A stretch of 63,679 nt of DNA, counting the filler, from Nemertoderma westbladi (Eukaryota > Animalia > Xenacoelomorpha): assembly GCA_032718475.1 (NCBI GenBank). It is 4 parts of 4 records of this genome, joined end to end, with 100 filler letters (N's around TTAATTAATTAA, not from the genome) between each part and the next. Parts side by side here need not be neighbours in the genome. Positions count along the whole stretch, not along the records: positions 13,526 to 44,285 come from JAUCBJ010002082.1; 3 more parts are not named here. One strand, written 5' to 3'. Under the pieces are notes generated by a model. The model had not been told where the DNA came from. It searched no databases and saw only the letters and a program-made list of their open reading frames with translations. Each line of letters opens with the position of its first letter. Position 1 is the stretch's first letter. The position numbers and the translations under genes are program-made. Below are positions 17,786 through 61,322 of the stretch, one piece after another.

Positions 17786-20412
17786 TGTGATGAAAACAAT
17801 GTTGTCTAATGCCAGTTATCAATGTTAAAGATATTGTACAACATAAACTGCACTCAGAATAATCTCAATTACTGCAATCCGCCTAAGTACCGGTAGCCCG
17901 TTATCAACCCCAACACCAATCAGTTCTAGTACAGCAGTACTTACCGTACCGGTATACAGTACATCAGTCTATTGTTTTTCAGTCCAGAAAATCGACTTAG
18001 ATCCTACTTTTTCCCCACATCTCCCGCAGTTTTTTCATAAAAACTTTATCATATTTTACTTTCAGTTTCAAACTGTTTCAGTCGGCTTCAACATTCCTCT
18101 ATATATCGTCTCGGTGGGTGCACTGTTCGCTGTGGTCTTGATAATTTCTTTGATGATGATTCTATAACTGAGTCTTCACTGTCTTCGCTGCTACTATCAC
18201 TGTCATTATCGTGCGTCGTCTCGTGAACAACTGGTTTCTCTTCTTGTCGGTAGGTCTTTCTTACGTCATTCATGTGTCTTCTGACTCCATTTACAACTAC
18301 GGCCCACTTGTCTACTGTTTCGACTCGAACCGGGCCTCTTCACTTCTTCCAGCATTTTACATGTTGTCCAGGCTTTACATAGACCCAGTCTCCTGGCTGT
18401 ATCTTGTGTAGTGGCTTCGTCGTGTCGGTGCTCGTTTGTCCTATTGCTGTTTTGATACCCGGTAGCTTGGTACGTCTCTCCGCTAACCCTCGGAAACACA
18501 ATTCCGTGGGGGAACCGTCTTCTCCTCTACTTGTGGTATGATTGTACCAGAAAGTTGACTGTTCTAACGTTTTCCCCAAGCGAGCCGCCCACGTTTTTAT
18601 AGTGCGGTGTACCCGTTCGACCGGGTTGCCCTGTGGTCGATACGCACATATGTATGATATGTTTACTTCCCATTTACTGAGGAATTTCTGGAACTCGTAG
18701 CTCCAGAATGCCGGTCAGTGGTCAGCCATCACTATGTCTGGAGGACCCAATTCTGTGAAGATCTGCTGCATTTCTCGCACCACATTGCAAGCATTCTCGT
18801 TGGTTACACGACGTATTATGGTATACTTTGTTGCACAGTCCTTTATTGACAGATACTGCCGATTTCCATATTCAACGAAGTCTATTGATAGCCGATTCCA
18901 CACTTTTGAGGCCTTTGTACTCCCAGTCTTCCAATTCAACGGACTCGGATCTATGCTGAAGCATTGCTGGCATTCCCGACATATTTGTTCCACCATTTGT
19001 TTGTCTATTACTTCTTTCAGTTCAACGTCGCAATGACACATCTCCAATGTTCTCTCGATACCCGGATGGAATATGTTATGAATTTCTGTAATCCGTTTTC
19101 GATGATCTGAATCTACTGTTTCTTTGAGCTGCATTGTTGCCACAGCTGCTGCTAAGGGTTTTCTTTGATTTTCTTCGATACCATAGGGTTCGCTATTGCC
19201 AATTTTTAACCAATTCTTCGGAACTCTTGTTAGCGCATCTGCTTTGTTTAAATGTGTGGGTACTTGACATGGGTGGATCTTTAAGTCAAATTGCTGGATA
19301 GTGTTAGCGATTATATCCAGCCGTCTTGCTATTAATTTCCGCGATTGTCCCTTTGTTCTGATGCATGTTCAGATGTCTGTTCCAACATTTCCATAGCCAT
19401 CTGTCTAACTTTCGCATCGACGACATTATCCCATGCCATTTCTGCACAGCACCGCTGAATCCATGCGCACGCAGGCCTGATCGATCCTGCTATCGGATAG
19501 TGACCACGCAACTTCCCGCACAGCGAATATATTTCTCGTCTAGTTATCGTATCCGACACTTCCGTTGGTACCTCCAAGTCGCGATTCCGCTGCAGCGTAC
19601 CAGTATGGTCTTCTGTTATGTGGAGTCCTAATACTCGGCTTCCATGCTCGATTTTTTTCGCTGGTTTAGTCATCAGTCCGTACTTAGTCAAATGGTCGCG
19701 CACTTTGCCAGTCGAAATGCGTTCTGTATCGACGTAGATGTCATCTCTGAAGTTGTTAGTTGCTTTCTTCACTTCTACATCCTTTGATAACACTTTCTCC
19801 ACTATTCTATCCATGATTTTGGGTGCTGGTCCTATCCCAAACCCCATTACTGTAACCAAGTACTGAGTCCCATGGTATACCACGGTTTGAAAGGGTCTCA
19901 ATGCTTCAGTAATTCCTACCTGCATATAGGCCCATTTCAAGTCTAAAAGCACTGTTTTATTTCCCATACAGCGCCACTTACGCATTTTTTCGTTACAGGC
20001 AGCCGCTTCGCGACCTGGCGAGTTTTCCACATGCTGGTTCAACTCTCTGTAGTCCAATATGGGGCGGACTCTTTCTTTCTTCGGTTCATATTTAGACATG
20101 ATTGGAATAGTACCTCGCACCGCACCGTGTTTATCTGGGTCGTATGGTACCATCCAACTTTGCTGTACCCACTCTTCCATCCCCGATTCGAACATCCGCC
20201 GATGTTCCGGACGAATTTTGTACTCTGTTGCTCTATTTTGCAGCATCAGCTCCGAGTTGTTCTTCCACTTCCACTCAGCAACCCATTTATATCCATCGTA
20301 GGTAGCGCTAAAGTCTGACTCATCTAATTCGATTACCGGATTAGAGAATGGTTTGGCAACTTTGGGAGAAATGAAGCTCGCTGCTGCTCCGACCAGTTCC
20401 TTTGTATCCCTG
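17786..20412 (-). mobile_element. Gypsy-like LTR retrotransposon, 5'-truncated and decayed
   Basis: RT RPILDYRELN...LDLKWAYMQV...MGFGIGPAP...FRDDIY; NKADALTRV; integrase HNIFHPGIERT...C..C, SIDF, AYRPQGNPVERVHRTIK. PPT GCGGGAGA is followed by TGTGGGG at 18019. LTR end at 17786 is tentative. Confidence 0.82.
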
Positions 20413-20549
20413 CCCTGCAAACATTTTACGTTAATTACGCTAATCTAACGTTAGACTTTAGTCTGTTTTAGGTTAGAAAAATAAAGTTATAAAAATAACT
20501 TAGAACAAACGTTTTCTAACGTCTTATAATCGTTTAAAAACTACATGTC

Positions 20550-24555: not shown

Positions 24556-26340
24556 TTAATAGACTAGAATTTTAAAGGATCTAAAATTTGACAGATTTTA
24601 TAAATATTAATAATTAATATTTAGGATGGGCACCAGTTTATTCCAGAACTTGTCTGGGGACGTTAACCACTGATTCTAGAATTTTGTCTTTCAAGTATAT
24701 CGGTGGGTGCCGCGATATCTTAATCGACTAGAATTGCAGATGGTCAAAGGGTTTAACAGATTTATTTTGCGTTATACGCTACTGTTAAAGGGACATCACG
24801 CTACTATATGTATTATTTAATATACGGTATGAGAGCAATATCGCACGAAGCAATGTCAGTGAGAAGAGGCAAGTCGTTTCCAAGGTCTACCCAGAGCTTG
24901 GTTTAGCCGAGACAGGAGGATCTGAATTTTGCATTCCTAATACTCTACTTTACCAATAATACTTGAATATAGTAGGAGCTTTATTGTACTTTAATAAGTA
25001 CGGATATTTCATCTTACTGTAGTTACGTATTTGTAATGTAATACGGACAGTAAGGAAAGAGAAAAATAATTATTTCTCGCCGTCGCTGTAAATATATAAT
25101 ATGTAAATAATTAAGTAATAAGCACTAATATATTGCACTAATCTACTAAATAATCGCTAAAATAACATTCTACTAAATAAAATTAAAGAAAACGATTATA
25201 ATAAAATTACATAATAATACATACATAAATATAAAATAATAAGAATATAAAATAATATGGTCACACACCCACTCCATACGCTACTAAGCTGGGGAGTCCC
25301 TAGATGTTTGTTGGATTAGGGAGGTGGTCGTGGGAAGAGTATCTTGCCTTCCATAGTTTCCGGACAGTTCTCGGTCTCTTTCCAGTAAACATAAACGACA
25401 AACTGGGCGATTGAGGTGCTGTGTCTCGAAGACAATTCCCGGTTTCTTGAAGTTACGTCGCATGACGACGAGTTCTACCGATCGCACCAAACCATCATCC
25501 GAGATGTGAGTCTCGATGATACGACCTGTCTGCCACCGCTTACGTGGAAGATCTGAGTCCACAATAAGGACCATGTCTCCAGCGCTGACGTTTTCTTGCT
25601 GCGCAAACCACTTCGTTCGAAGTTGTAGCGTGGGCAGATAGTGTTTTTCGAAATGATCAGCGAAACGACGGGATAACAACTGCATGAGTTGCCAAGTTTG
25701 CCAGCAGTATTCGTCTCCGTCTGTGATTTCCGATTGTGGGGAGCATGGCTACAGGTTTCTTCAGTAGGAAGTGCGCGGGTGTTAGCGCTTCCAGGGAATC
25801 GGGACTCGATGAGACTGGCATAAGCGGTCTCTCGTTGAGATAGGCGGCGATTTCCTCCATTATCGTCCGCAAAAGTTCGTCGGTGAGATACGCGCGGCGG
25901 CACGGCACTATAAAGTGAAATGCGGTCTTCACGCTTCTAATTAATCTCTCCCAACTTCCTCCCCACCAAGGGGCGTCGGAGGCGTTGAAGGTCCAGCTAG
26001 AAGCTGTTACCCTTAGCTGATCATCCACCTGTCTTTGGTTCCAATCTTTGACGTAAGCTTTGATTTCATTGTTGGCACCAATGAAGTTTGTTCCCTTATC
26101 AGATCTCATCGTGTTACTAGTTCCAAAGCGAGCGATCTGTCGTCGTAAGCTTAATAGGAAGCTGTTGGTAGATAAATCGTTCACCATATCTAGATGGATA
26201 GCTCTACAAGTCATACAAACAAAGATGACGCACCATCTCTTGACTATAGTCCTAGCACGATATACTTCAATAGGGCCAAATAAATCTACACCGGTATTAG
26301 TAAAGGGTGGTTCATAGAAGCTTACTCGTTCCCTAGGTAA

Positions 26341-29300
26341 TTATGCCTCTCGCTGTGTTAAAGGCCTACTGAATGCTTTCCTACAGGGTATGCAGTTCCT
26401 AAGAACTTGGTTCAGAGCTCTACAGGGTTTATAAAAATAATAGCGAGTTCGAATTTCGCTAAGAACTCGTTCTCTACCACCATGATAAAGTTTGCTGTGA
26501 ACATCTACAATCATCTTGACTTGTATTTCAAGATTTCTAATGAGGATGGGGAACTTAGTGTCAAAGGATAATGGAGCATTCGTTAATCTTCCTCCAACAC
26601 GTATCAACCCATCTATCATTGTGCTAGAGAAACGATCCCTTAAGCGCATCTGGGGATTTCTCAACAACAGGAAATACTTATCGGAATCCTCATAGCATTG
26701 CAGGAGTCTCAGCATCTGCTTGTTGGTTTCTTCATGCTCCTGATAACTGATCTTCTCCTTCAGAAACCTGTCGGATATCTTATATTTGGGAAGATCTTTA
26801 ACAACATGGACCTGCACCGATGTCAGCGGAGCGGTATCACTATTGGTCTTCGTCCCGGAGTAGTGATGATGAAAACATCTTTTTAAATATGTAACGGCCT
26901 TACAGAGCCGATTCCAGGAACTGTAGTGATGTATCGCTCTCTGCAGGAGAGGTGAGAGTCCTTGCGAGACGTCTGGTATTCCAGATTTCCAATCCTTCTC
27001 ACGGATTTCCACAACAGACTTATTTATGGCTGTGGGTTTCTGATCCAAAGCGTCGTCTCCGGAAGTATGTAGTACAGACAGATCTACCATAGGTTTAAAT
27101 AACTTCGATTTACTCGCCCGAGTTTTAGGTTTGACTTTCTCCGCTCCCTTGGCCTGTCTGATCTCTGCCGTAGTAAGATGAGGAGGCCATTCTTCTTCTT
27201 CTTTATAGAGTAAGTCGGGTCCACCTAACCAGTCTGGAGTATCTACCAGTTCTTGTGGAGTTGCTCCCCTGGAGGCGATGTCTGCTGGATTAATCGTTCC
27301 GGGGCAATGTCTCCATTGATCCATCGTCGTGCGACTGAGTATAATAGGACCAGACTCACGGGAGTTGCTGGTGAATTTAGTTAATCGAAATCCACCTCTT
27401 TTTAAGCACTCTACCATTCCTTTAGCGACATCAATGGCTTCTTCGACTGATGGAAGGGACTTTAGATTGTCGTCCATGTATATATCCCGTTTGATGTTGT
27501 CAATCACCTCTTTAGAGAAGGCTTCTCGGTTGTCATCCGCAGTGGTGCGCACCACTGAACAGGCGTTTGAAGGGCTTGAGATTATCCCAAAAGCCTGGAT
27601 GGTCATCCAGTACTCCACCGGTTTCTGGTTGAGGTCTCCTTCAGGCCACCACAGAAATCGTAGGCTATCTCGATCCCTATCCAGCGCCTTGACTTGTAAG
27701 AACATGCCTTCTATATCTGAGGCGAAAGTGATTGAATATTGTCTTAATCTTAAGAGTATTCCCAACAAGGATTGGAGTAAGTTGGGTCCGGGTAACAATT
27801 CGGAATTAAGGGATTGGCCCATGTAGAGGGCGGAGCCGTCAAACACTACTCGTACCTCATGGGGTTTACCGGATTTGGGAACGTAATGGTGAGTTAAATA
27901 ATACGTTCTCTCAGTTATAGGTGTTTCTTCTGGTACTCGCTCCGCATATCCCTTGCTAATAAATTTCTTCAACTGTGTTTGATACATTTCTTTAGTTGAA
28001 GAATTTGCCGTAAGGCGTCGATGTAGTTGAGCAATTCTTTTCTCCGCCAAGGGTCTGTTGTTTATGAACTTTGGTTCTCGCTTTCGGAAAGGTAGACCGA
28101 TTTCATATCTACCTTGATCTTTAAGAAAACGTGTAGTTGTCTCTTGGATCTGCTTGGCTCTTTCTTCTTCTACCGATAGGGCCTTATCGTAGGAATTGGG
28201 CTCTACAGCCTCTTGAGTAAAGAATCGTACGGCGTGTTCATCCCGAGTTTTGGCATTATAACGTTCAATGACGTCATTCAGTTCGTCGTTATAGTCGTCT
28301 CGTTCTGATGGACGAAGGAGCTGACATAAGTTCACTCGGTTTTGCCAAGTCTCGTTTACCTTAAGGAGATCAATGGTATTCTCCTCGTCGAACAGTTGGT
28401 GGACATCGTCATTATCTGAGGAGTATGGCGTTCCCTCAGTTGGATCGTCTAACTCACTGCTCTCAACTTCCCATTCTCTTACTTGATATACCTGATCTTT
28501 CGGTAATCTTTCCATGAGAGTTCTACGGGAAGGGCCAGTAAAGTACCAACCCACTCTAGTTCTTCCCGCATAAGCTTGTAGTGGTTGCGGTTGAGCAGGC
28601 CGTTTCTCCAATGTCTCGAGCGCTTCATGCACGTTTTGACCCATGAGTATTTGCACTCCAGGGTAATCGGTGTTGAATCTAGGTATTTCAAGCTGCTGGG
28701 TGAAATCGTCCTCATCCCAGTTATAAGGTTCCACTTGGCTGGTAGCGAAGTTCTTTATCGCCACCATTTTTACTGACCTTATACTATGTTCTCCTAGTTC
28801 ATCCTGGGGGGTGGACAACGCACCTACATAATAATCCGCTATTACTGTAGATTTCCAAACCTGCATAATTCCTGACATATTTAGCTTAGTTCGGAACTTG
28901 GGTTGTCCAGCAAAGATGTCTTCGGCTAGTTCTTTGTCGATGAATGTTCCTGTGCTACCGGAGTCAAGGAGGGCGTTCACTATATAACTCCTTTTAGGTC
29001 CGTGGACCCTTAACTGTACTACAGGAAATTCTCGGATTCCTACATTGGAAGTTGGCGCTTTCCAAGATGGTTGTCTGTCAGAAGTAGTTAGGGTGAGGTC
29101 GCTGTCTGTGTCTTTTTCATATGTAAGTGCTCGATACACTGCGGTATTTATCATGTAACAGGATTCGTCTTCGTCGGAGAATTCGTCCGTATAGAATCCT
29201 TCCATCTCAGAACTTTGGTCAGTGTCATTCACATCACTGAATTGGACATGTAGTTCGGACTCACTTACCTGACTCGGGCTGTTTCGCTCGAATTCAGTGT

Positions 29301-29868
29301 GCAACAAGATATGATGTTTCGCACCGCACTTTGCACACCTTGTGTCGGAGTAACAGGTTCGCCGTTGGTGTCCTTGTCTGAGGCAATTATAACATAACCG
29401 CTTATCCCACATGACTTCCCGTCTATCCGTTAATGATTTCTTTAGGAATTCATCACACACGTTCAAACGGTGGGGCCCGTCACACAGCGCACATTTCGGT
29501 TTGATGTTACTTACCTTATTTTGAGTAACGTTGTGCACACTCGTTCTTTCTTCGGGCTTTCTTACCTGAATTCTCTTAGGAGACGTAGGAGGGGTTTTTC
29601 TTACCTGTTCTCTCCTGTCATTGGTTCGAGACCTGAATTTACTTACGTCTTTGGGCGTTTTGTTGACATAATAAGATCTTTCAGTGTCTTTCCCGCTGTC
29701 CTCTCCTTGAGAAGCCTGGCTTTCGCCGTCGTCGGTATAACACACTGGTGTTACCTTTCTCCTAGAAACGGGTTTCTCACTTACCTTGTTTTCCAGTGTC
29801 TTCTCTCTGGACTGCTTTAGGAGCTGTAATTTCACTTCTCCATCTAAGAATGACATGAGATCAGCCAT
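26341..29868 (-). CDS. BEL gag C-terminus/protease/RT polyprotein, 1175 aa, most of RNase H deleted in frame
   Basis: LTKFTSNSRE is joined almost directly to TTMDQWRHCPG. A premature TAA precedes the integrase core. Confidence 0.85.
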   Translation of the reverse strand: MADLMSFLDGEVKLQLLKQSREKTLENKVSEKPVSRRKVTPVCYTDDGESQASQGEDSGKDTERSYYVNKTPKDVSKFRSRTNDRREQVRKTPPTSPKRIQVRKPEERTSVHNVTQNKVSNIKPKCALCDGPHRLNVCDEFLKKSLTDRREVMWDKRLCYNCLRQGHQRRTCYSDTRCAKCGAKHHILLHTEFERNSPSQVSESELHVQFSDVNDTDQSSEMEGFYTDEFSDEDESCYMINTAVYRALTYEKDTDSDLTLTTSDRQPSWKAPTSNVGIREFPVVQLRVHGPKRSYIVNALLDSGSTGTFIDKELAEDIFAGQPKFRTKLNMSGIMQVWKSTVIADYYVGALSTPQDELGEHSIRSVKMVAIKNFATSQVEPYNWDEDDFTQQLEIPRFNTDYPGVQILMGQNVHEALETLEKRPAQPQPLQAYAGRTRVGWYFTGPSRRTLMERLPKDQVYQVREWEVESSELDDPTEGTPYSSDNDDVHQLFDEENTIDLLKVNETWQNRVNLCQLLRPSERDDYNDELNDVIERYNAKTRDEHAVRFFTQEAVEPNSYDKALSVEEERAKQIQETTTRFLKDQGRYEIGLPFRKREPKFINNRPLAEKRIAQLHRRLTANSSTKEMYQTQLKKFISKGYAERVPEETPITERTYYLTHHYVPKSGKPHEVRVVFDGSALYMGQSLNSELLPGPNLLQSLLGILLRLRQYSITFASDIEGMFLQVKALDRDRDSLRFLWWPEGDLNQKPVEYWMTIQAFGIISSPSNACSVVRTTADDNREAFSKEVIDNIKRDIYMDDNLKSLPSVEEAIDVAKGMVECLKRGGFRLTKFTSNSRESGPIILSRTTMDQWRHCPGTINPADIASRGATPQELVDTPDWLGGPDLLYKEEEEWPPHLTTAEIRQAKGAEKVKPKTRASKSKLFKPMVDLSVLHTSGDDALDQKPTAINKSVVEIREKDWKSGIPDVSQGLSPLLQRAIHHYSSWNRLCKAVTYLKRCFHHHYSGTKTNSDTAPLTSVQVHVVKDLPKYKISDRFLKEKISYQEHEETNKQMLRLLQCYEDSDKYFLLLRNPQMRLRDRFSSTMIDGLIRVGGRLTNAPLSFDTKFPILIRNLEIQVKMIVDVHSKLYHGGRERVLSEIRTRYYFYKPCRALNQVLRNCIPCRKAFSRPLTQREA

Positions 29869-31485
29869 GGTAGGGTCTCGTCGTTGCTGTTACATCATAT
29901 ATAACACTTTCTTATCCCAGCGTGTACCTACTCCACCCTTCGGTAAGGTAGAGGCCACAGCTCCAATAACTATAGAACTCTGATATTCATGAGACTTACC
30001 TAGCCAATCTAATTGTCTACAGATCTCTTGAATCTCATCGGAAAACTCTATTATCCCGCTGCTAATGAACTTTCGGGGCGCTACCAATTTTGCATACAAA
30101 TACCTAGCTATGTTATTCCTATTACCATACCTGATGTTTAGGGTATCCCAAACTTGTCTTAATCCATCGGGATGTCCAATAAACTTTAACGCCATTAACT
30201 TGGGAGATCCTTCCAAGCACTCGATGAGGAATCTAAGTTTCTCTCCGTTAGATAGCACAGAGTTCTGTATGTTATCTTTGTAATATTCATTAAAAGGTAA
30301 CCATTTCATCTCATCTCCATTGAACTTGACGATCTCTCCCACCTTTACCGCTTGACGGGCTTCGGTTCTAGCCATTTGACGCGTAAAACTTTCTTGGGCC
30401 ATCGTGTTATTTAATATCGAGTTATCGGTATATAAATTTCTCGGATTATTATCAAGTCTATATGGAATATCATTGTCAACAGGTTTATAATTACCCTTAA
30501 TAGGGTTTACTATAGGAGTTTCCACTTCGCTAGCAGTATAGATGCGTGTAGGCTCCACACCTTGCGCATGAAATACTTCAGACCTAACAGGTTGACACAT
30601 TGTTACAGGGGGTGGTGGTATACCCTTTTGTGTATTTACTAATTTATTGCGTTCTAACGCGATACTTTGCTGCACTTCTTGCAACTCTAACCTACTTTCC
30701 CTTACTGTGCCCTTGAACTGCTTAACAGTCTCCTGCATCTGCCCGAGCAGGAGATCCATCCCCCGCCGTCTCTCATCCACCCACTCGACCGCCGAAGCAG
30801 GAGTCGCCAACGTTGTAGCGGGCGGACGAGGGACAACGGGCGACAAATCATTAATATTTCGCTCGGAGTCCAAGACATAAACTGTCTCATGGGCTGTTCT
30901 GCTGGGTACAGGTAGCTTAGTGCTATGCAAAGAGAATTTAGAGGTAGGTTCTGGGAGTACAGGTGTCTCTATCACCGAAGGGGTGGCTTCGAGAACAGGC
31001 CTAATTATTTCAGGCTCATCTACTATAGTAGGGAGTCTGTCTATTTTAATAATTTGGTCTATGGGTTCTGTACTACCTAAGTCGGTGCTAGTTAGTTGTT
31101 TTCGAACAGCTGGGGGGCAAATCAGGCAATTTCTGACGGTGGGACATTCTTCTACGTCTGCTAAGACGAGATCTATTTCCTCCGCCTTCAGGATCGGTGG
31201 TATCGCCTTCCTCAGATGATGTATATCCTTGACTAGCTGTTAACTGTTTATTTATGCAGTCTTGATTCTCTTGAAGATTTTCCAACTCTAGTTGGGTTGT
31301 TTCTTCAGATGCCCTCCGTTCTGCTTCTGCCACTGCATCTGCCGCTGCCACTACCGCCTTTCTTTCCGCTTCGGCCGCTGCCACTGCCGCCTTTCTTTCC
31401 ACTTCTACCGCCTTTCTTTTTGCTTCTGCCTCTGCCGCTGCCGCTGCCGCCTTTCTTTCTACTTCTACCGCCTTTCTTTCCGCTT

Positions 31486-32030
31486 GGACATTATGGTGCC
31501 ATACAGAGAGCGGGCCAGGGTTACTCTCTATATCACCGCAAAGAAGGATCGATATGGAAGATGGTTGGAAGGTAATTGAATATACAGTACTACTGTGGCT
31601 AATAAAACATACACTGGATGCCACTGGGTACTGTTTGCAAACCAATAAGAACCATAATAAAACGTGAAAATTTTGAATATGGTTTGTTGTGGCTATCCGC
31701 CACATTTTGTCGGATAATGTAGAAACATTTGGTTGTTACTGGCTTGCAAACAATATAATGCATTATTAGTAAGTTTAAAGTTTGAACAAACAAGAGAAAG
31801 TGGCCAGTGGAATGGGGCTGTGAGTAATAAAACAACGCGCAATGTCAGTCGAGTTGGGCTATGTACGAAAACTGTACTTCTACATAAACAAACCAAAATA
31901 CAACTTACATAAACGGACAACAAATATAAAACAACCATCACCCAATATAATTCTAGTTCACTATACAACAAGAAACTGGCTGTAGCACAGTACGCAAACG
32001 CTTAAGCAACAGTGAGGCAGGTATCAGACC
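31486..32030 (-). mobile_element. 5' fragment of a CR1/L2-type LINE with 2A-like peptide
   Basis: ILLCGDIESNPGP at 31511-31549 followed by LSVWHHNVQ, resembling an APE endonuclease start. The upstream boundary is approximate. Confidence 0.72.
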
Positions 32031-33499: not shown

Positions 33500-35306
33500 C
33501 TAGACGTAGATAATATCGAATTTGTAATGCTTAGCCAATGAGTCGTTATCTAGAAGTTTGCCTGAGAACTTCATAGCATCGGTATCTGTTGCCAAAGCAA
33601 CAACACCTTTCCCTGGAGACTCCATGGTAGCTGGTTTCATTACCCCGAACCACGGACCGATGTACTTAATAAACTTATCTTCGTGTGGTTCCCAATGTCC
33701 GCTGTCAATCTTCCGTTTAAACTTCTCCACATATGACGTCATTATGAATCCGGGTTGTAACCCGACAACGACTACATTATGGGGCCGCAACTCAATGGCC
33801 ATCATCCGTGTCATCCTATCCAACCCGGCTTTGACCATACTGGCCGCGAGGCCGGTCCCGGCGTAGTAGTCGGGGTTGTCCCCACCGTCCGACGCCGCTC
33901 CTTTGCTCCGTAAATGCTTTATCTGTTCGTCCGATAAGTCGGTAGTGCTGACAATTAGACCGCCGCCCTTAGTAAGGGATATATGGATGGTAGCGAGACA
34001 ACAGGTTAAAGTACCGAAACAGGTTATTTATAATATACAGGCCTACATCATGTAGGGGAGAGAATGGGGGGGGGGGGGGGGGGGAATACCATCTCGGCGA
34101 ATTAATATCGCGTCTTAATGATAAATTATCAATTAAGTGAATGGAAAGAACCAGGTTACAGTGGCACTCAGTGTATTAATTAAAATTCAGTGACATCCCT
34201 CCCCCACAATTATCCACTTAATCTTCAGGGTGTCTCTCTGGGTTTGGGTGTAACCCCTCGGGAGGTTGTTTTTTAAAACATCTGAAAGACCGTGTTTTAG
34301 GTCAATACATCAGTTATTTGGTGTTATGTTAACGTGGGGAGGCTAAAAATGTACTGTCTCTATCTACATTTCACTAAAAACACCACTAGTCTCTTAATAT
34401 TTATTCTAATTTGTTGAAACTTTGTTGTCTTTTTTTGGAATGTACAAAAACACTCCAGCAGATCTTATAAACTATAATTTTTTAATTAAATTAATCAATA
34501 ATATTTGAACAAAAATTTAAAATCGTGCTGGAGTGATTTTCAAGATCCAAAAACCATTCAAATGAGCCATAAATTATAGAATTTGGGTACAAAATGACGG
34601 AGGAGTATAGTAATATGAAAATTTGAACAAGTAATTATTTGATAATTTCATTTAAAGTTTGACAATTTCCGCTCAAAACTGCCGACTTATTTGGAAAAAC
34701 AACAGATCGTTCTCATCGTTGAAATAAATGGATTGTATGGGATTGTTCGTCCTCTGACATTATGATAATTTGAATTTTTGACAATTTGTAACGAATTAAT
34801 TAGATTCCCAGCTCCCCACTGTTGTTACCTTATTGTAAAACTCATGTTGTCAAGCTACATTCACATCCCTGTTTTATCATCATTTTAGCAGCTAACGAAG
34901 AAGCGATGTAGTGAACATTCAGTCCACTGCTCGACATTCTACTAAACGTATCGATCGGCCATTCCCAGAAAGGCGATCCTAATTGACCGTTATACAATAA
35001 CCCAGTAGGGAAACAATGATTCACCAGAATATCCAATCGTTTCTCTTTCTCCTCTATCGATTTAAATACAGAAATTATGTCTTCTTCTTTAGAATGATCG
35101 CATTTAATCGCTGTGACTTTTCCGCCTCTCTTCGCCGCCTCTTCTACAACCTCATCCAACGACATCCCCGGTTGATCTGGTTTCCGTTCTTTCGTTCGCG
35201 CGGTTATGTAGACCTTCGCTCCGGCGTCTGATAGTTGGAGTGCGATTCCCTTTCCGATACCAGTAGAGGCTCCGGTTACTAAGGCAACTTTACCTTTCAG
35301 AGACAT
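33500..35306 (-). CDS. DHRS1: DHRS1-like short-chain dehydrogenase/reductase, two visible exons
   Basis: Exon 1 (35306 to ~34868) has VTGASTGIGKGIA, KCDHS, LDILVN and PFWE. Exon 2 (~33968-33500) has GLIV...KAGLDRMT...ELRPHNV...PG...GKGVVALATD. The splice donor is unresolved. Confidence 0.82.
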
Positions 35307-37309
35307 GATGTTTAAAAAGTAAACAAAAAAGAAAATAATAAGAGGAGAAATAGACAAAGACGATGATTTTTTAAATAACAAATTATGCTGAATCCGAATC
35401 TGATATCAGTTGTTCCATTGGTTGCAATATCAGTTGTTTTCGAGTTATTGGACACCTGAACGACTATCAAATACAAAAACATTTAGAAATATTCCGCAGT
35501 TTTTGGAATTAAGGCCTCAAAAGTATTTTATACTTTATTGCATCCAAATCTTTAAGCAATGACAAAAAATAAGTTTACTTTTGACAATGTAATGTTAAAG
35601 ATGTTTATATTATTGTACAATGACTAAATCGAAATAGATTTTTGACGACGTTTTTCAATCGACCTTTAAACTGTGCAATAAAATTGTATCATTGTTAGCA
35701 AAAATAGGGAAAAACAAACGTTTTATACAATAATTTGTGTTGACTGAATTTTGTTTCTAAAAACGTTATGGCGCATTTCGTATTATACAGTACGGTAAGT
35801 CAGTCCCGCATAATATTTTTATGTTCACATAAAAATTTGCACGGAATGTTTGTTTACATAATAACTCTAGAACTAAACAACTTATCGAAAAACCGATCTC
35901 AGATCCCGAAAAATCACTTTTTTACATCTGCATAATAATAATTATTTATTATATTAAAGTCATTCCCAAACAAAAAATATAACTGATGATAAAGATAGGC
36001 CTACACCTAGAAGGCAAAAACACCAACAACAAATAAAAAACAGTATACAGTACAGTAAATACAGCATATAATATACTGCGGGTTTTAATAGAATAGGCTA
36101 ATTGAACTGCCGAATAGACCCTATACTACTGTATGTACAAAATTATACGCACACACAGACCGGTCATCAACAAACAGAAACGTGATTGTCGCAAGTTTGT
36201 GGTGCTGCTTCCCTTTGGTTAGTTACAGAGCGTCTCTCTTCATTCATCTTTCCCCTTGAGAATACATTCAGCTGCGGAATGAAACCTACAATCAGCTGAC
36301 GTCTACGCCCATTTGCTTTTTAGTTTTTTTAAATGGTTTGGTCCTAGCATAACTACCGGTTGAGGTTTTTACTTAACGTGTTTCAAAAATAAAATAAATA
36401 TAATATGTAATTTACAAAATTTAGTTGAACATAACAAACAATGTTCAATGTGGCAACTAAATGAAAAATTTTAACCAACAGATATTCGAAACTGTTTAGG
36501 TTACTCAACAATGATGCAATAGTTAGTTGCGCAACATGTGTATGTTTATGTAATAATTACTAGATTAGCTATAATAAACTATAAAGGATCGACAGATGTT
36601 TTACTAAAGGTCTATCAATTATTATTCCATTAATTAATAATTAGCGAGAATACTGACGCTGTCCCCAGATGTTCCCATAATTTATTCTTATTATGTAATA
36701 AACGAAACTTAAGTAAACTATGAACATTTCTTAACTAATTAATATGCTTATGTATAGTGGTCCTTTTTCTCAATGGGAGCTATTTATTATGTTGCACATG
36801 GTGTTAAATATTTTATTTTTGGGAAAGTTCTACCCCACACCGTTTATATAACATACTAGTACACAAGTACATGCGCCGACACCAGTTCAAGTTTAAATTG
36901 CACTGCGGACACCAGCGCAAGTACCACTAGCGAAATTAGTAATCGGGTGTAGTTTCACAAATTCTAATAGCTAAGGTACCATACAAATAGCCGACACCAG
37001 TGCAAGTATCGCTAGTATCACAAGTGCTGGTACCGGGGTGAGTACTACAGTAGTACCGACACTGCAATGACCAATTAGATATAAGTATAGTCGAAGGACA
37101 ACATTGTTTAGTCATGACAACGTGTGAACATTGCTATAGATAAGAAATAAAATATTATAATATAAGCATTCTCATTGGATAATATTTGTTTAATAATCGC
37201 CGTGACAATGTGTGAAAACCTTGAGGGTATAGATAAAATAATTTTTTTGAATTCTTTATTCATTATATCATTTTTGTTTGGGAATGTCTTGTATGCAATA
37301 AAACAGAAA

Positions 37310-37822
37310 ATGTTTACTACATTGCAATCTGAAAGTAATTATTACTGCGGCGCTAATTCAATTATACCAATTAGAGTTGAGTTGTTATCCGCTACAGCGC
37401 GAGCACCAGTTTGTGGGCCTTATTGTCCCGCTGGAATAGATATTTTCAGCGCCGTAAATAGAACGATAGAGCCACACACGCGAATGCTCATTGGAACAGG
37501 CATTAAATTATATCTTCCACCCAATTTCTATGGAAGAATTTCTCCACCGTTCGCGCTATCGCAAATTGGGATTGATGTTCTGGAAGGTATATTAGATTCA
37601 AAACCGGCATGCGGGAATATAGATAAACTTATGGTTATTTTAATTAACAACTCACACCGAGAGTACACCGTATCTATTGGAGATAAAATAACCCAAATTA
37701 TCTTTGAACGGAGCAATGCTCCAATACTATATGTTTCTGAAGTTCGTACCGACGCCGAAGACCGTTTTAAGCTTCCAACGCTGGTATCGTATGAAAATGA
37801 AGTTAATTGTTCTTATTATTAA
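37310..37822 (+). CDS. Intronless dUTPase-like protein with degenerate catalytic motifs
   Basis: AGIDIFS, IGTGIKLYLP, YGRISP, GILDS, VILIN and GDKITQIIFE match the trimeric dUTPase fold. Likely start is the ATG at 37310. Confidence 0.82.
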   Translation: MFTTLQSESNYYCGANSIIPIRVELLSATARAPVCGPYCPAGIDIFSAVNRTIEPHTRMLIGTGIKLYLPPNFYGRISPPFALSQIGIDVLEGILDSKPACGNIDKLMVILINNSHREYTVSIGDKITQIIFERSNAPILYVSEVRTDAEDRFKLPTLVSYENEVNCSYY

Positions 37823-38364: not shown

Positions 38365-38586
38365 CTAATCTAATACATATACTATATATATAATCTAATA
38401 CATATACTACATATATAATCTAATACATATACTATATATATAATCTAATACATATACTATATATATAATCTAATACATATACTATATATATAATCTAATA
38501 CATATACTATATATATAATCTAATACAGTACATATACTATATATATAATCTAATACATATACTATATATATAATCTAATACATATA
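38365..38586. repeat. 25-bp AT-rich minisatellite
   Basis: CATATACTATATATATAATCTAATA repeated about eight times. Confidence 0.92.
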
Positions 38587-39177
38587 ACTTATATTTATAT
38601 AAAGTGAATTAGAACCAGATCATAATTATTACATTTATCATTGGAAATATATTGAATATATATACTGTAATTGGAAAACAAACTATATCTAATTGCATCT
38701 CATTATTATACATTAACTTTTCTTGAACTATAAGAAAGAAGGTTTATAGACCCGATGAATTAAACCTATTGAATCTTTGAATATCTCCAATGAAAGTAAC
38801 AATGTGTTGGCAAGCTGTATTTTTCGAGGTGTTTGTTATTATACATTTTATTATAAGAAGGGATCTAGGGGTCTATGAGATATTAATTTCAAGAAAAATT
38901 ACGCGATTCCTAAATTTGTACACTACCCGGTTAAAAAGTACGCATGTGATGGGATTAGTCCTACAATTGCGCCAATAAAAGATAAGTTATTTTCGGTAAA
39001 ATAAACTTATCATTCGAGGTTAAGACCCCTAGATCCCTTCTTATAATAAAATGTATAATAACAAACACCTCGAAAAATACAGCTTGCCAACACATTGTTA
39101 CTATCAATAATCAAAAATCAGGGGCTAATAAAATGGCAGCTGTCTTTGAAATTAATACTCCATATCTCAAGAACCTG

Positions 39178-39230
39178 TGGCCTAGTGGTTGTAGTCTCGG
39201 CTTCGGCCTCGAGGTCCCAGGTTCGAATCC
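39178..39230 (+). promoter_or_regulatory. tRNA-type Pol III internal promoter (A and B boxes), repeated every 412 bp
   Basis: A box TGGCCTAGTGG at 39178-39188 and B box GGTTCGAATCC at 39220-39230, with a GGC-TTCG-GCC hairpin between. No complete acceptor stem. Confidence 0.85.
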
Positions 39231-39233
39231 GAC

Positions 39234-39276
39234 ACCACGCTGATGAGACCCAGTAAGGTCGAAACGCGTACGTGGT
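39234..39276 (+). ncRNA. Minimal type I hammerhead ribozyme, copy 1
   Basis: Stem I ACCACG/CGTGGT; core CTGATGA; stem II GACC-CAGTAA-GGTC; GAAA; palindromic stem III ACGCGT; predicted cleavage after GUA at 39270. Confidence 0.92.
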
Positions 39277-39645
39277 TTGGAGAGATATGAGATATTAATT
39301 TCAAGAAAAATTACGCGATTCCTAAATTTGTACACTACCCGGTTAAAAAGTACGCATGTGATGGGATTAGTCCTACAATTGCGCCAATAAAAGATAAGTT
39401 ATTTTCGGTAAAATAAACTTATCATTCGAGGTTAAGACCCCTAGATCCCTTCTTATAATAAAATGTATAATAACAAACACCTCGAAAAATACAGCTTGCC
39501 AACACATTGTTACTATCAATAATCAAAAATCAGGGGCTAATAAAATGGCAGCTGTCTTTGAAATTAATACTCCATATCTCAAGAACCTGTGGCCTAGTGG
39601 TTGTAGTCTCGGCTTCGGCCTCGAGGTCCCAGGTTCGAATCCGAC

Positions 39646-39688
39646 ACCACGCTGATGAGACCCAGTAAGGTCGAAACGCGTACGTGGT
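39646..39688 (+). ncRNA. Minimal type I hammerhead ribozyme, copy 2
   Basis: Same sequence as copy 1. Confidence 0.92.
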
Positions 39689-40057
39689 TTGGAGAGATAT
39701 GAGATATTAATTTCAAGAAAAATTACGCGATTCCTAAATTTGTACACTACCCGGTTAAAAAGTACGCATGTGATGGGATTAGTCCTACAATTGCGCCAAT
39801 AAAAGATAAGTTATTTTCGGTAAAATAAACTTATCATTCGAGGTTAAGACCCCTAGATCCCTTCTTATAATAAAATGTATAATAACAAACACCTCGAAAA
39901 ATACAGCTTGCCAACACATTGTTACTATCAATAATCAAAAATCAGGGGCTAATAAAATGGCAGCTGTCTTTGAAATTAATACTCCATATCTCAAGAACCT
40001 GTGGCCTAGTGGTTGTAGTCTCGGCTTCGGCCTCGAGGTCCCAGGTTCGAATCCGAC

Positions 40058-40100
40058 ACCACGCTGATGAGACCCAGTAAGGTCGAAACGCGTACGTGGT
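40058..40100 (+). ncRNA. Minimal type I hammerhead ribozyme, copy 3
   Basis: Same sequence as copy 1. Confidence 0.92.
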
Positions 40101-40469
40101 TTGGAGAGATATGAGATATTAATTTCAAGAAAAATTACGCGATTCCTAAATTTGTACACTACCCGGTTAAAAAGTACGCATGTGATGGGATTAGTCCTAC
40201 AATTGCGCCAATAAAAGATAAGTTATTTTCGGTAAAATAAACTTATCATTCGAGGTTAAGACCCCTAGATCCCTTCTTATAATAAAATGTATAATAACAA
40301 ACACCTCGAAAAATACAGCTTGCCAACACATTGTTACTATCAATAATCAAAAATCAGGGGCTAATAAAATGGCAGCTGTCTTTGAAATTAATACTCCATA
40401 TCTCAAGAACCTGTGGCCTAGTGGTTGTAGTCTCGGCTTCGGCCTCGAGGTCCCAGGTTCGAATCCGAC

Positions 40470-40512
40470 ACCACGCTGATGAGACCCAGTAAGGTCGAAA
40501 CGCGTACGTGGT
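40470..40512 (+). ncRNA. Minimal type I hammerhead ribozyme, copy 4
   Basis: Same sequence as copy 1. Confidence 0.92.
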
Positions 40513-40881
40513 TTGGAGAGATATGAGATATTAATTTCAAGAAAAATTACGCGATTCCTAAATTTGTACACTACCCGGTTAAAAAGTACGCATGTGATGG
40601 GATTAGTCCTACAATTGCGCCAATAAAAGATAAGTTATTTTCGGTAAAATAAACTTATCATTCGAGGTTAAGACCCCTAGATCCCTTCTTATAATAAAAT
40701 GTATAATAACAAACACCTCGAAAAATACAGCTTGCCAACACATTGTTACTATCAATAATCAAAAATCAGGGGCTAATAAAATGGCAGCTGTCTTTGAAAT
40801 TAATACTCCATATCTCAAGAACCTGTGGCCTAGTGGTTGTAGTCTCGGCTTCGGCCTCGAGGTCCCAGGTTCGAATCCGAC

Positions 40882-40924
40882 ACCACGCTGATGAGACCCA
40901 GTAAGGTCGAAACGCGTACGTGGT
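40882..40924 (+). ncRNA. Minimal type I hammerhead ribozyme, copy 5
   Basis: Same sequence as copy 1. Confidence 0.92.
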
Positions 40925-41135
40925 TTGGAGAGATATGAGATATTAATTTCAAGAAAAATTACGCGATTCCTAAATTTGTACACTACCCGGTTAAAAAGTA
41001 CGCATGTGATGGGATTAGTCCTACAATTGCGCCAATAAAAGATAAGTTATTTTCGGTAAAATAAACTTATCATTCGAGGTTAAGACCCCTAGATCCCTTC
41101 TTATAATCCAATGAAAGTGGCGCTGTGCAATTAGC

Positions 41136-41825
41136 ATGCGAATCTCAGCTCAGCGGTATGAGCTCTGGCTCATACAAGAGCTTTGCTTAGCGTTGCACTG
41201 CTCAATTGGATTTTGCTTCACTTGTAAATTTGGATCAACCTACAATTACACAAATGAAAACGAAGATATCGAAAATAAGGTCCAATCATATATTAACCGC
41301 CTATTATTTGCAAACTTCGGAGACACAATCCCCTTCATTGTAAATCATTGCGAAGACCAATGCGGATTTCTAAGCATGAGATTCCTTGGATACGTCATGG
41401 AGAATGATGTTAAGTTCAAGGGTATGTTGGAATGGAATTCATACAGTTGCAAGTCGGGGGACAATGCGAATCCATGTTCTAACCCAGAAGGATTCCAATG
41501 CGAATCAGTATTCACTTCTCCTCAGGCGGCAGATCAAATACTGAATGGTTTCGGTGATCTTTTCTTCAAAGTGAAAGAAATTTACAAGAGTCAGATGACA
41601 CTCACAAAGGAAATTTGTCAATTTGATTGCTGTAACAGTACTTGCTCTGCTTTTGAATGGGACGCAGCTGACTCATTTACATCACGTCCAACTACCGTAG
41701 CAGCAACTACTGACAAGGCAACCACTAGCGTTGTCGATTACACCACGACGATGAATGGGTCTGCAAACAACATCTCATCAATGATACAACTAGCCGTGAT
41801 CATCACAATGTGTGTAATCTTTTAG
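41136..41825 (+). CDS. Cys-rich, probably secreted and GPI-anchored protein (Ly6/uPAR-like pattern)
   Basis: Moderately hydrophobic N-terminus, CFTC...C...C...CQFDCCN, a Thr-rich stalk, then NGS and a hydrophobic C-terminal tail. Open 229 codons. Confidence 0.72.
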   Translation: MRISAQRYELWLIQELCLALHCSIGFCFTCKFGSTYNYTNENEDIENKVQSYINRLLFANFGDTIPFIVNHCEDQCGFLSMRFLGYVMENDVKFKGMLEWNSYSCKSGDNANPCSNPEGFQCESVFTSPQAADQILNGFGDLFFKVKEIYKSQMTLTKEICQFDCCNSTCSAFEWDAADSFTSRPTTVAATTDKATTSVVDYTTTMNGSANNISSMIQLAVIITMCVIF

Positions 41826-42899: not shown

Positions 42900-44281
42900 C
42901 CAATGTGGATAATGCCGTAAAGTTGGGGTTGGAGTCGGCAAGGGCATTCAAATCAACTCTCCCAAATGGTTCACTACAAAGAAGCAACACCCTAAAGTAT
43001 TCAACCTTCCCCCCCACACAGAGTGCCGCTGTACAACATGTAAAATGGGCTCGTTTTCAAGTTCTTTTGTGGAGAGCTGCTGATGATCCTGCACCTCCAC
43101 TGTTGGCTGTTAACAAGTTTGGTTGGATAAAAAGTAAAGTAGACATAAAAAGTAAAGTAAAACGTAAATTTTCTTCGGCCGCTAGGCCAGGGATTACGCA
43201 CAAAGTCTGACAACTTATTTCCAGTGCGGTCCCCCAGAACTTTACTCCACAGAGGAAACTCCAGTACTCATTTAGCTACCATTTAAGGATGCAAAGCAGA
43301 GATGCGCCCTGGCTGGTCCCTTTAAAGCATTCGTGCCGAAACGAAAGCTGCCCTGGCCCATTTGAGGATCGAACCCACGACCTACAGGAGATGTGAATTC
43401 AATGCAACCACTACACCAAGGTGGAACTATCAATGACCGATGGATAGCGATCAATGACAAACTGATACCGGATCCTGGCGTCTCATCCATTGCCCCAATT
43501 TCGATCCTTAAAACTATATCTTGTAATTGCAAGTCCGAAAGTGCCTGTTCTGCCAATCGATGCGGCTGCTCTATAGCCGCTCTACCATGTACTACAATAT
43601 GCACCTGCACCACTTCAAGGTGTAAAAATAAATACAATGTCTAAAGCGATGTTCCGTTTAAATAAATAATTTAATAAACATACAACTCTTCTAGCTGATT
43701 GATTAACTTTCGTAATACCAGTAATGGAGAGTATATTTGGGATAGATACCCAGATAGGTACACAGTAAAGAATGATGGCACATTGAATCTACTGTACCTA
43801 TATTCTGCAATCGTTGGATAGATACACGTCAAAATTTGCATTTGAAAGGAGAAAACTAACTCATCTAATTAAATGAAAACTAACTTTGATTAATAACCCC
43901 CCAGTGATGATATAATTGTTTGCTTTTATAAATAGTTACATAAATAATCTAAAGTTTAATAGTTGGCATATCTTAATAAACATCCCAAAGGCCAAAATTT
44001 ATGATTAATAATGTTGCTATGGGAACTAATCTTCTAGAAATCTTATTCAGAATAATTAACAAGAGCTGTGGCAATAGGTGCAAGGTCGCAGATATCTCAA
44101 AATAAAACCTTGTGTGCCGGTTGCTATGGAAACTTAGGTTAAGTGCTTTATAAAAAGTTCCCCAAAGGTGCCAAAGTGGCACCCGACGGATTTTGATTAC
44201 TCTAAGGTCCGACTAAAGTTTAAGCAAATAAAAATGCGTGATGACCCAAAGTCACGGTGGACCCCTCTGTTTACCTGACTA
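42900..44281 (+). mobile_element. Academ-like DNA transposon 3' remnant
   Basis: FPPTQSAAVQHVKWARFQVLLW...FGW...ISCNCKSESACSANRCGCSIAALPCTTICTC (Cys8 finger). Candidate terminus ...TTTACCTGACTA reads TAG on the minus strand. Confidence 0.65.
43130..43440 (-). mobile_element. tRNA-derived SINE inserted in the Academ-like ORF
   Basis: A box TGGTGTAGTGG, B box GGTTCGATCC, ACTTT tail; TSD TGGATA at 43124-43129 and 43441-43446. Removing it restores FGWIAINDK. Confidence 0.88.
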
Positions 44282-44285
44282 TAAA

Positions 44286-44385
44286 NNNNNNNNNNNNNNN
44301 NNNNNNNNNNNNNNNNNNNNNNNNNNNNNTTAATTAATTAANNNNNNNNNNNNNNNNNNNNNNNNNNNNNNNNNNNNNNNNNNNN
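44286..44385. other. Artificial contig spacer
   Basis: N44-TTAATTAATTAA-N44. Confidence 0.97.
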
Positions 44386-56697: not shown

Positions 56698-57800
56698 ATG
56701 CAAAGCGGAGGCGATTTTGTTCTAGTGTCAAGCTTGGGGGAACCAATGAGACACCTCCAATGTTATATAGTGTCTGGTTGGTGATGTGTGCATTGAACTT
56801 GACACAATGAACCCGGCGTAGCATTCTTGTGAATGTGCCATCCAGAGATTTGGTGTCCTCAGCAGGTAGAGCCCAGCATGGACTCCCATAGAGGAGTACT
56901 GGAACTACTGCTGCTCTAAATAACCGGACCTTAAGTTTCCGATTAATTCTCGGTGACTTTCAAATCCTCGAAAGCCTATTCAAGGCTGCCCATGCCTTTC
57001 CCTTACGTATTCGAAGGCCCTCACCTGACTTCCGGATCCATGATCCCAGGTAACAGAAGTCATCCACATGCTCAAGCATAACATATTTTGAGCTTATGCT
57101 CATCCGATCAGAGACTTGCTGAGGACTTTCAAAGTTAACTGTCAAAATTTTGGTCTTTCTGGAGTTAATAAAAAGACCAACACTAGAAGCAGCATGTTCT
57201 AATGAGCTGAGGAGCCGTTGGGCTCCCTCTAGTGATTCTGAGAGTACTCCTAATTCATCAGCAAAGTCTAGATCAGTTAGGTACTTGGCAGGATTTCCTC
57301 GACTTCTGGAGCCAGTAGGTGGAGTTATCATCACCCCATCATCATTGTGATGATCCAAGGACATGCGTAGAACATAGTCAACAACAATTATGAACAAGAA
57401 TGGTGCAAGTGTGTCTCCTGGAGGACGCCCCATAACACTTCAAATGGTTCTGTGTCACCGCCAACAGTAGACACAAATGTTGTCGAACCATCGTATACTG
57501 ATCTGATTGCTGCAATAATTTCATCAGGAATCCCATATAATGAAAGTATGCTGAACATACGTGAGCGAGAGACTGAATCAAAGGCCTTGAAGAAGTCAAC
57601 AAAGATAACAGCCAGATGCCTGTCTTTCTTTTTTGATAACTCTTCAATTATCCTTCTAAGTGCCAAAAGGGGCTCCATGGTCGCACGACCTTTACGGAAC
57701 CCATTCTGATTTCCACGGAGCAGTCTCTCAATGGGATCCCTGATGCGATTTAATAGAATTGTATAGCTTTGCAGCAATCGAGATCAATGAGATTCCCCGA
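56698..57800 (-). mobile_element. RTE-like LINE RT fragment replacing part of the 3' LTR
   Basis: NQNGFRKGR, FVDFFKAFDSV, GVLQ/GDTLAPFLF, DLDFADE and FCYLGS; frameshifted. Confidence 0.9.
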
Positions 57801-59642: not shown

Positions 59643-59742
59643 NNNNNNNNNNNNNNNNNNNNNNNNNNNNNNNNNNNNNNNNNNNNTTAATTAATTAANN
59701 NNNNNNNNNNNNNNNNNNNNNNNNNNNNNNNNNNNNNNNNNN
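59643..59742. other. Artificial contig spacer
   Basis: N44-TTAATTAATTAA-N44. Confidence 0.97.
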
Positions 59743-61322
59743 ACACCCTTGGAAAGGTGGAGTTTTTAGACCTTTGTGAAGCCTTTCTTTCCAAGATTGG
59801 AAATGAGATGTTGTTTCCAAAGAATGCTGGTCGACCTGGTGAAGAATGGTACCTCTCGTTTATGAAGAAAGGTGGAAGAAAGAACTCAGTGTACGCAAAC
59901 CCAAATTGCTCACCTTAGCTAGAGCATTGGCGTGTAATCGAGTTGTTGTTAATGCATGGTTTATGCTCCTCGAAGATAAACTGGAGAATATGGAGTTAAA
60001 GGACAAACCAGCGCAAATACTGAACTGTGATGAGAGTGGACTTTGCACAAACCCTTCTCTGAGTAAAATTATAACGAAACGTGGGACTAAGAATCCTGTC
60101 AATGTTGTACCAGGTTCCGGGAAGGAACAGTTTACATGATACTCTCCACAGTAAGTGCAGCTGGGCATAACTACCCACCATTTGTTGTCTATCAGGGAAA
60201 GAATCTGTATGCTGAGTGGATGCAAGGTGGTCCTTCAGGAGCTCTTTATGGGGTTACAAACAATGGGTGGATGGAGACTGATGTTTTCTTGAGTATTTCA
60301 AGCAGCTATGCCATGTCTGGCTTCGTGAGGTTCCACGGCCAATTCTTCTCATATATGATGGCCATATGAGAATGAGCCACATCTCTCTAAGAGTCGTTGA
60401 AATGGCAGTTGAACAGCAAGTTATGATCCTGTGCCTTCCTAGCCACTGCTCCCACCTTCTTCAACCACTTGATGTTGGGATATTCAAACCTGCTAAGTCA
60501 ATCTGGCGTGAAATCCTGAAGACATACGACAAAGATTCAAGGCTCAAACAAGTAGGTAAATCTGCATTTCCATCATTGTTGAAGAAACTCTATAACAAGG
60601 CATTTGTACAAGTCCATATAGTAAGTTCATTTGGCAAGACTGGTATCTTTCATATACATCGCACAGCCATTGCTACAGATAAGCTAGCACCTGGAGATGT
60701 TTTTGACAGAGACCAGCCTGTGCTACAAGTGGATACTTCCGTAATTAACACTGACAACGTCGTACCCGATGCTGCAGAGGCTATTGAAGAAGTGAGTTCA
60801 TCTGAATTGTCAGCAGAGGCAGGGACCGCTGGATCTACATTAACAGCTTCCCTGGTTATTGCGCCAACAATATTTGGTGCCAGTTCCCAGCTCTCCTCAG
60901 ATGGACCCAAACGCAACACCGATGAACCAATGTCATTGCACTAATCAATAATGGAGGCTGTATACTCCCAGCTGCGTGAAACACATTCTGTTGTCCGTGA
61001 TACCCAGCGACCAAAGTGTGTTGTGAAGCGCCGATATGGCGGTGAATGTATAACAGAAGATGCTGCCATTGATAGGATCCGGTCAGAGGAGATTGCGAAA
61101 ACAAAGAAGCCACGCAGTAAGCAGACAAGAGGAAAGAGTTCACTTACAACAAGTACAAGTTCAAACATGAATCACTGTGCTGACTGCCATGCTTGTTGGG
61201 ATGATAGGGATGAAAACCATCCTGATTGGGTAATGTGTGAGCGTTGTGATGAATGGTACTGTGGAGACTGTTGGCCTCCTGAATTCTATGGCGATGATGA
61301 ACCTTATTACTGTTGTCAGTAA
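59743..61322 (+). mobile_element. pogo/Tigger-like (DDE_1) transposase pseudogene with C-terminal PHD-like finger
   Basis: ILNCDESG, NGWMETDVF, DGH, LPSHCSHLLQPLDVGIFKP and CADC...WVMCERCDEWYCGDC; stops and frameshifts. Confidence 0.88.

Follow-up and report, generated by a model that had tools for sequence, protein, structure and literature searches.

A tandem array of identical 412-nt units in the genome of Nemertoderma westbladi, with a type I hammerhead ribozyme motif in each full unit, is likely a member of the non-LTR retrozymes. In the reading that we favor, at a probability of roughly 60%, paired (double) hammerheads would cut the multimeric transcript of this retrozyme, the resulting circle would stay mostly uncut, and a Penelope-like enzyme would copy the circle. 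The hammerhead anatomy, the palindrome in helix III, the array, the promoter-type boxes, the target duplication, the inverted arm and the high copy number were read directly from DNA sequence.

The array, its insertion site and its hammerheads

We analyzed a stretch of 63,679 nucleotides, hereafter the window, along which all positions are counted. Its four parts are separated by three gaps (13426-13525, 44286-44385 and 59643-59742), each made of paired runs of N around a short spacer. The array and its immediate surroundings comprise the following features.

38786-38797, + strand: left target-site duplication, TCCAATGAAAGT, 12 nt, edges uncertain by 1-3 nt
38795-38873, - strand: inverted 5' arm, 76-79 nt, exact reverse complement of unit positions 151-229
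38874-41107, + strand: tandem array by repeat analysis, 5.42 copies of a 412-nt unit, 100% identical, 39% G+C, non-coding
41107-41118, + strand: right target-site duplication, 12 nt
39146-39168, + strand: left arm of a 23-nt inverted repeat, pairing with 39282-39304, 87% complementary
39171-39233, + strand: tRNA-like head; its A box (39178-39188) and its B box (39220-39230) lie 42 nt from each other
39402-39405, + strand: sole T4 run in the unit (unit position 117), a possible weak Pol III terminator

The forward array begins 15 nt past a cleavage site, which would be expected in about 4% of cases for a circular template, and runs to unit position 174. The first 3 nt of the inverted arm are common with the target duplication. 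Within each unit, the 23-nt inverted repeat encloses the tRNA-like head and the ribozyme, and the unit array contains no long ORF. The array thus has the tandem units of 150-450 nt, the hammerhead in each, the G+C content below 50%, the lack of coding sequence and the target duplication longer than 4 bp that define non-LTR retrozymes, along with the inverted 5' copy and internal ends of elements mobilized by Penelope-like elements (PLEs). By analogy with PLEs, the target duplication and the inverted 5' arm give the insertion a Penelope-like shape. It is not an autonomous PLE, having no ORF with both reverse transcriptase and GIY-YIG domains. A GIY-YIG domain was likewise absent from all 36 window ORFs of at least 140 aa, and no PLE partner was identified in the window, which contains two reverse transcriptase fragments of unassigned clade (19335-20420 and 56963-57439).

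The insertion lies in the likely 5' region of a 229-aa ORF (41136-41825, +), because this ORF starts 17 nt past the right duplication. The predicted protein is cysteine-rich, with a Thr-rich stretch and a hydrophobic C-terminus; it has no Pfam match and looks surface-anchored. To the left, an AT-rich 25-nt minisatellite (9 copies, 38366-38599) ends about 190 nt from the insertion, and a dUTPase ORF (37175-37822, +) lies about 1 kb from the array. Elsewhere, the window holds a short-chain dehydrogenase gene in two coding stretches (33500-35405, -), the remains of a BEL/Pao-type LTR retrotransposon (25284-31705, -) with DUF1759, an integrase zinc domain and DUF5641, an ORF (14835-15287, -) with a PP-loop/HUP domain and matches to NAD synthase and QueC-like proteins, and P-element-like ORFs with THAP and TNP-like RNase H domains together with a DDE_1 transposase fragment (10487-11890, +, and 60366-60944, +).

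Sequence and structure scans identified a complete type I hammerhead at 39234-39276, with an intact core and ends within helix I. Its parts are as follows.

39234-39276, + strand: type I hammerhead motif, copy 1 of 5 identical copies (sequence, structure scan, Rfam HH9 below gathering)
39646-39688, 40058-40100, 40470-40512 and 40882-40924, + strand: further identical hammerhead copies
39234-39239, + strand: helix I 5' arm ACCACG, forming 6 bp with the 3' arm CGTGGT
39240-39246, + strand: core CTGATGA, from sequence
39247-39260, + strand: helix II, GACC/GGTC, 4 bp, from sequence
39251-39256, + strand: loop 2, CAGTAA, which by alignment matches the HH9 consensus loop in length and ends
39261-39263, + strand: GAA of the core, from sequence
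39264-39269, + strand: helix III region ACGCGT, 1 bp plus palindromic tetraloop in the monomer, 6-bp helix between two copies
39268-39270, + strand: predicted cleavage triplet GUA, cut after 39270, from its position in the core
39270, + strand: A17, third letter of the GUA triplet
39271-39276, + strand: helix I 3' arm CGTGGT, from sequence
39228-39282, + strand: extended helix I, with 5 additional pairs past a bulge (11 in total), from alignment and folding

The motif has the CUGANGA, GAAA and NUH elements together with helices I and II. In a structure scan of both window strands, the hammerhead occurred five times, at 39240+412n, each time with the same perfect palindrome, and nowhere outside the array. 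A loose core pattern matched 15 times in the window, and five of these matches are the array hammerheads. Rfam HH9 scored 26.6 bits against all five copies, under its gathering score of 52 (E 1e-4 in a 301-nt stretch). The local fold of the hammerhead region is more stable than expected (z -6.1), a value reached by 0 of 200 shuffles.

Helix III in one copy and in two

A single copy closes helix III with one base pair under a palindromic loop, within the 1-2 bp and palindromic loop of dimer-type hammerheads. The first-pass annotation had described stem III, ACGCGT, as self-complementary and weak as a hairpin, and our folding models confirm this: a single copy pays about 5.2 kcal/mol to close the A-U pair over CGCG, against -7.5 kcal/mol for the duplex between copies. 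By itself, the palindrome is modest evidence for action as a dimer. Palindromes make up 16 of the 256 possible inner tetramers (6% by chance, or 0.067 at the base composition of the unit), and ACGCGU ranks fourth of 256 in homodimer stability. The HH9 consensus has a C-G pair adjacent to the core; if this pair is fixed, just two letters can vary, and a palindrome would arise by chance in about 1 of 4 cases.

The preference for two copies was computed with a nearest-neighbor folding model. In this model, the single active fold has a probability of 2e-5 at 37 °C, equal in the circular monomer. Unconstrained cofolding of two copies gave a strand-swapped double hammerhead at -44.3 kcal/mol, versus 2 x -18.0 kcal/mol. 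For a 617-nt transcript of two units, the modeled probability was 0.02 for the double fold versus 2e-5 for the single active fold, a ratio of about 1000; an inactive fold of two monomers reached 0.009, about half of the double fold's 2%. A transcript from the predicted Pol III start gave 0.015 for the double fold versus about 1e-5. A second copy lies nearby in the array, and the model favors the double over the single active fold. Because the model contains neither tertiary contacts nor Mg2+, its ranking alone is meaningful, and by that ranking a dimer preference of this palindromic-helix-III hammerhead is likely.

The circular monomer is highly self-paired (z -5.0, matched by 0 of 100 shuffles), and helices I and II form in about 73% of the ensemble. 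We also considered whether the ribozyme folds only with its upstream arm and set this aside as weak, since the probability of helices I and II was 0.38 without the arm versus 0.73 with it. The palindrome-breaking and compensatory mutants that the first-pass annotation had proposed were modeled in silico. Two breaking variants lowered the probability of the double fold to 3e-8 and 5e-10, a drop of six to eight orders of magnitude that is rough because non-standard pairs were forced, and two substitute palindromes failed to restore it (2.5e-5 and 6e-4).

The extended helix I and loop 2 bear on an unlikely alternative, in which the ribozyme is efficient as a monomer. Here, contact between the extended helix I and loop 2 would prop up the 1-bp helix III, and the palindrome would be a fixed C-G pair plus chance, the 1-in-4 event above. 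Helix I does have 11 pairs with a bulge and forms with helix II in most of the ensemble, loop 2 equals the HH9 consensus loop in length and ends, and newt monomers whose helix I extensions contain internal loops do cleave, as reported in PMC6155905. Loop 1, however, is 2 letters shorter per strand than in the HH9 consensus by alignment and lacks the consensus UAC letters, the cost of closing helix III counts against monomer action, and in PMC7229834 the axolotl Amex1 monomer, with the same helix III and all tertiary contacts, was just 6% cleaved.

The claim that this hammerhead works as a dimer survives as a preference, carried by the roughly 1000-fold ratio in the model and by the axolotl analogy. 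A strictly dimeric mode overstates the case, because cleavage is also reported for newt monomers with an extended helix I, which is present here too. Against a dimer cycle, the double fold would make up only 2% of the model ensemble, and the helix I and loop 2 features resemble those of cleaving newt monomers.

Promoter, family copies and the proposed cycle

In 5 of 5 full units, the A and B boxes sit directly upstream of the hammerhead. Judged by its sequence, the tRNA-like head is likely a Pol III promoter, and a cut monomer would have it at its 3' end because the boxes sit just before the ribozyme. Only one other A/B box pair occurs in the whole window (43340-43430, -, boxes at 43418 and 43375); it is unrelated to the array and probably an ordinary SINE. 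A real tRNA gene in the head was rejected, as ARAGORN returned 0 and Rfam no tRNA match, and so was a cloverleaf reading, since the acceptor and T stems do not pair. At 39205-39206, in the loop at the anticodon position of the head, the array reads GG and most family copies read CA; with CA, the central triplet of the head would read TCC (Gly).

The first-pass annotation had also claimed that the tandem order is functional because adjacent units pair to cleave. The dimer fold is indeed favored in the model. Dimer catalysis alone is an insufficient explanation, because releasing a unit needs two sites, and the tandem order has a further reason in that cutting would leave each monomer with the A/B-box promoter at its 3' end, the arrangement described for Sm-alpha.

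The single T4 run lies 232 nt past the predicted Pol III start and precedes the next ribozyme. It would suit a scheme that we rate very improbable, in which separate short Pol III transcripts ending at T4 form dimers in trans, and dispersed single copies could cut each other when numerous. In the model, binding between two local hammerheads is worth about 6 kcal/mol (ensemble -44.67 versus 2 x -19.15), the family is abundant, and Sm-alpha cleaves both in cis and in trans according to PMC6765202. In the model, though, the best dimer of the 234-nt terminated transcript pairs elsewhere than at helix III. Moreover, the ends of the insertion (unit positions 174 and 229) and the loose ends of family copies (177 and 237-238) lie downstream of T4 at unit 117, which implies that templates read through it. 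Depletion of T4 runs, considered separately as a sign of selection for read-through, was dismissed (1 observed versus 1.5 expected).

Seven of 12 listed sequencing runs contain the stretch or part of it, and among these 12 none of the runs containing it is listed as RNA. We aligned family pieces from runs X1, X2, X4 and X5 to 38500-39900 and obtained 3691 matching pieces from X1, 1432 from X2 and 89 from X5, all DNA runs, and one from X4. In X1 and X2, summed depth over the repeat exceeds that of the flank by a factor of about a thousand, which is not a copy number. The retrozyme family is high-copy. The X4 match, from a run labeled as another organism and RNA by guess, is a single 441-nt contig (39434-39874) of one unit plus 30 nt, a length compatible with units closed head to tail, whether in tandem DNA or in a circle. 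A separate search for relatives by B box plus hammerhead core gave 0 matches in viral contigs and 4 metagenome loci, which we rejected as chance matches: 3 of the 4 are bacterial-looking tRNA ends followed by hairpins, and the fourth has neither helix I nor a triplet that could be cleaved.

At unit positions 168, 270, 332 and 333, most family copies differ from the array, whose units all carry the minority letters; the inverted arm shares the one minority letter within its span. One template for the whole insertion, for example an uncut circle, fits because all units share these letters. The identity and number of the units could also reflect assembly smoothing, as no run contig spans the array. 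An X5 contig follows the left flank (38603-38797) through the final base of the duplication, then continues for 725 letters outside the aligned region. This contig is possibly an empty site, which would make the insertion polymorphic.

The family copies also bear on whether the ribozyme acts at all. It is improbable, in our judgment, that the ribozyme is weak or silent in both forms and that tandems arise from promoter position, copying of linear multimers or growth at the DNA level. The promoter at the 3' end of the cut unit would let only tandems propagate, by the logic of Sm-alpha. Of 9 Xenopus dimer retrozymes, 8 stayed uncleaved in vitro (bioRxiv 10.64898/2026.07.22.740005), PLE hammerhead dimers had low activity (PMC4209133) and PLE insertion in vitro needed no cleavage (PMC11167929). 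The modest 2% share of the double fold points the same way, as does the array start 15 nt past the cleavage site, the strongest argument for a linear template; it fits a multimer that was cut once and whose inner ribozymes stayed uncut. Against silence, the core is intact, and family contigs have no letter differences in the ribozyme, helix III included (among the best 40 of 97), and no indels there (among the best 12 of 47). In addition, one diverged family copy in X1 and X2 begins with the very base that follows the cut site (among the 25 of 5371 pieces listed). Among the same 25 of 5371, one family piece begins 3 nt ahead of the predicted Pol III start. The loose ends of family copies group at two places in the unit, positions 177 and 237-238 (among the matches listed, 18 of 640), near the ends of this insertion at 174 and 229.

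In the cycle that we favor, with double hammerheads and a spared circle, Pol III would start at the A and B boxes of one unit and read through the single T4 run. Neighboring hammerheads would swap helix I strands, join their palindromes into one 6-bp helix and cut after GUA; efficient cutting is predicted only in such a two-copy arrangement. A host ligase would then close the freed 412-nt monomer into a circle, which would stay mostly uncut because it has no partner copy. A Penelope-like reverse transcriptase/endonuclease would start inside the circle and go round it several times, and this copying would account for the tandem array as well as for the inverted 5' arm and the 12-nt target duplication. 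The transcription, cleavage, circle and enzyme of this cycle are what we infer.

Comparison with known systems

The dimer (double-hammerhead) idea is not new, since it dates from 1988. It also stands nearly verbatim, together with the protection of monomer circles, in PMC4209133; double hammerheads in general are covered in PMC6466107, and cave crickets are described with single and double hammerhead modes (PMC2837043). PMC4209133 gives canonical metazoan type I hammerheads a 6-bp helix I, a 4-bp helix II and a 1-2-bp helix III with a palindromic loop of 2-4 nt, and presents them as active as dimers, spared in monomer circles and distinct from the minimal hammerheads (min-HHRs) of PLEs. By this description, the motif at 39234-39276 is of the canonical metazoan type. 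Its assignment to the Penelope minimal hammerheads in the first-pass annotation was mistaken; it is the weak-helix-III type of axolotl HHR_Amex1 and the newt (PMC4209133). Unlike min-HHRs, which are described with a helix I of 4-5 bp, a helix II of 6-8 bp, no helix III and an extra base before helix II, the array hammerhead has a helix I of 6 bp, a helix II of 4 bp, four extra helix III letters and no extra base.

The closest known ribozymes are those of axolotl Rtz_331/HHR_Amex1 and newt satellite 2, which share tandem units of a few hundred bases, low G+C, a self-paired monomer and a type I hammerhead with a one-pair helix III under a palindromic tetraloop. HHR_Amex1, with 1 bp and a palindromic tetraloop, reached 6% cleavage as a monomer and much more as a dimer (PMC7229834), and axolotl and newt dimers cleave far better than monomers (PMC7229834; PMC6155905). 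Unlike these, the array has a 412-nt unit, tRNA-type A and B boxes and a loop 1 shorter than consensus; newt satellite 2 is apparently transcribed by Pol II (PMC6765202). The 1-bp helix III also differs from usual invertebrate hammerheads, in which helix III has 2 bp and the monomer is active; PMC7229834 reports efficient cleavage for coral and mussel monomers.

The head finds its counterpart in Sm-alpha, where a Pol III-type, tRNA-related promoter precedes a type I hammerhead in tandem (PMC6765202, PMC2770079). Compared by description, the array shares with Sm-alpha and Sj-alpha the order of promoter and hammerhead, a cut monomer with the promoter at its 3' end and the high copy number. The Sm-alpha hammerhead is fast and canonical (PMC6155905) whereas that of the array has the weak palindromic helix III, and the present insertion differs by its inverted 5' arm and 12-nt duplication. 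No tRNA-headed retrozyme except Sm-alpha appeared among the papers listed in our literature searches.

With PLEs, the array shares a dimer-type ribozyme, a tandem with an inverted 5' copy and ends at two internal positions, and differs in lacking an RT-GIY-YIG ORF. PLE insertions have an inverted, 5'-truncated copy and an end "tail" (PMC8557442), and the two loose-end clusters of the family, like the insertion ends, recall the two internal reverse transcriptase start sites of PLEs (PMC11167929). Animal retrozymes have been argued to be non-autonomous PLE derivatives in a study in which 1 of 9 Xenopus dimers cleaved (bioRxiv 10.64898/2026.07.22.740005), and they seem to be without a promoter (PMC7761336).

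A more specific version of our reading is doubtful as a whole. It would make the element a SINE-like retrozyme with a tRNA-derived Pol III promoter of its own, gained independently of Sm-alpha, and with a hammerhead acting as a dimer-only switch that cuts multimers and spares circles; a Penelope enzyme would copy the circle by two primings at one target, one making 5.4 turns and one the inverted arm, to leave a young, probably polymorphic insertion. If true, a SINE-like head would sit on a Penelope-mobilized circle, contrary to the no-promoter view in PMC7761336.

Taken together, the array is likely a further non-LTR retrozyme, whose ribozyme is of the known dimer type and whose head resembles that of Sm-alpha. 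It would become a convenient case for studying the transcription and mobilization of animal retrozymes if its circle and a Penelope partner could be demonstrated. The locus is a clean, young insertion that joins three features usually found apart: the tRNA-type promoter of Sm-alpha, the weak helix III of amphibian type, and Penelope-like ends with a target duplication.
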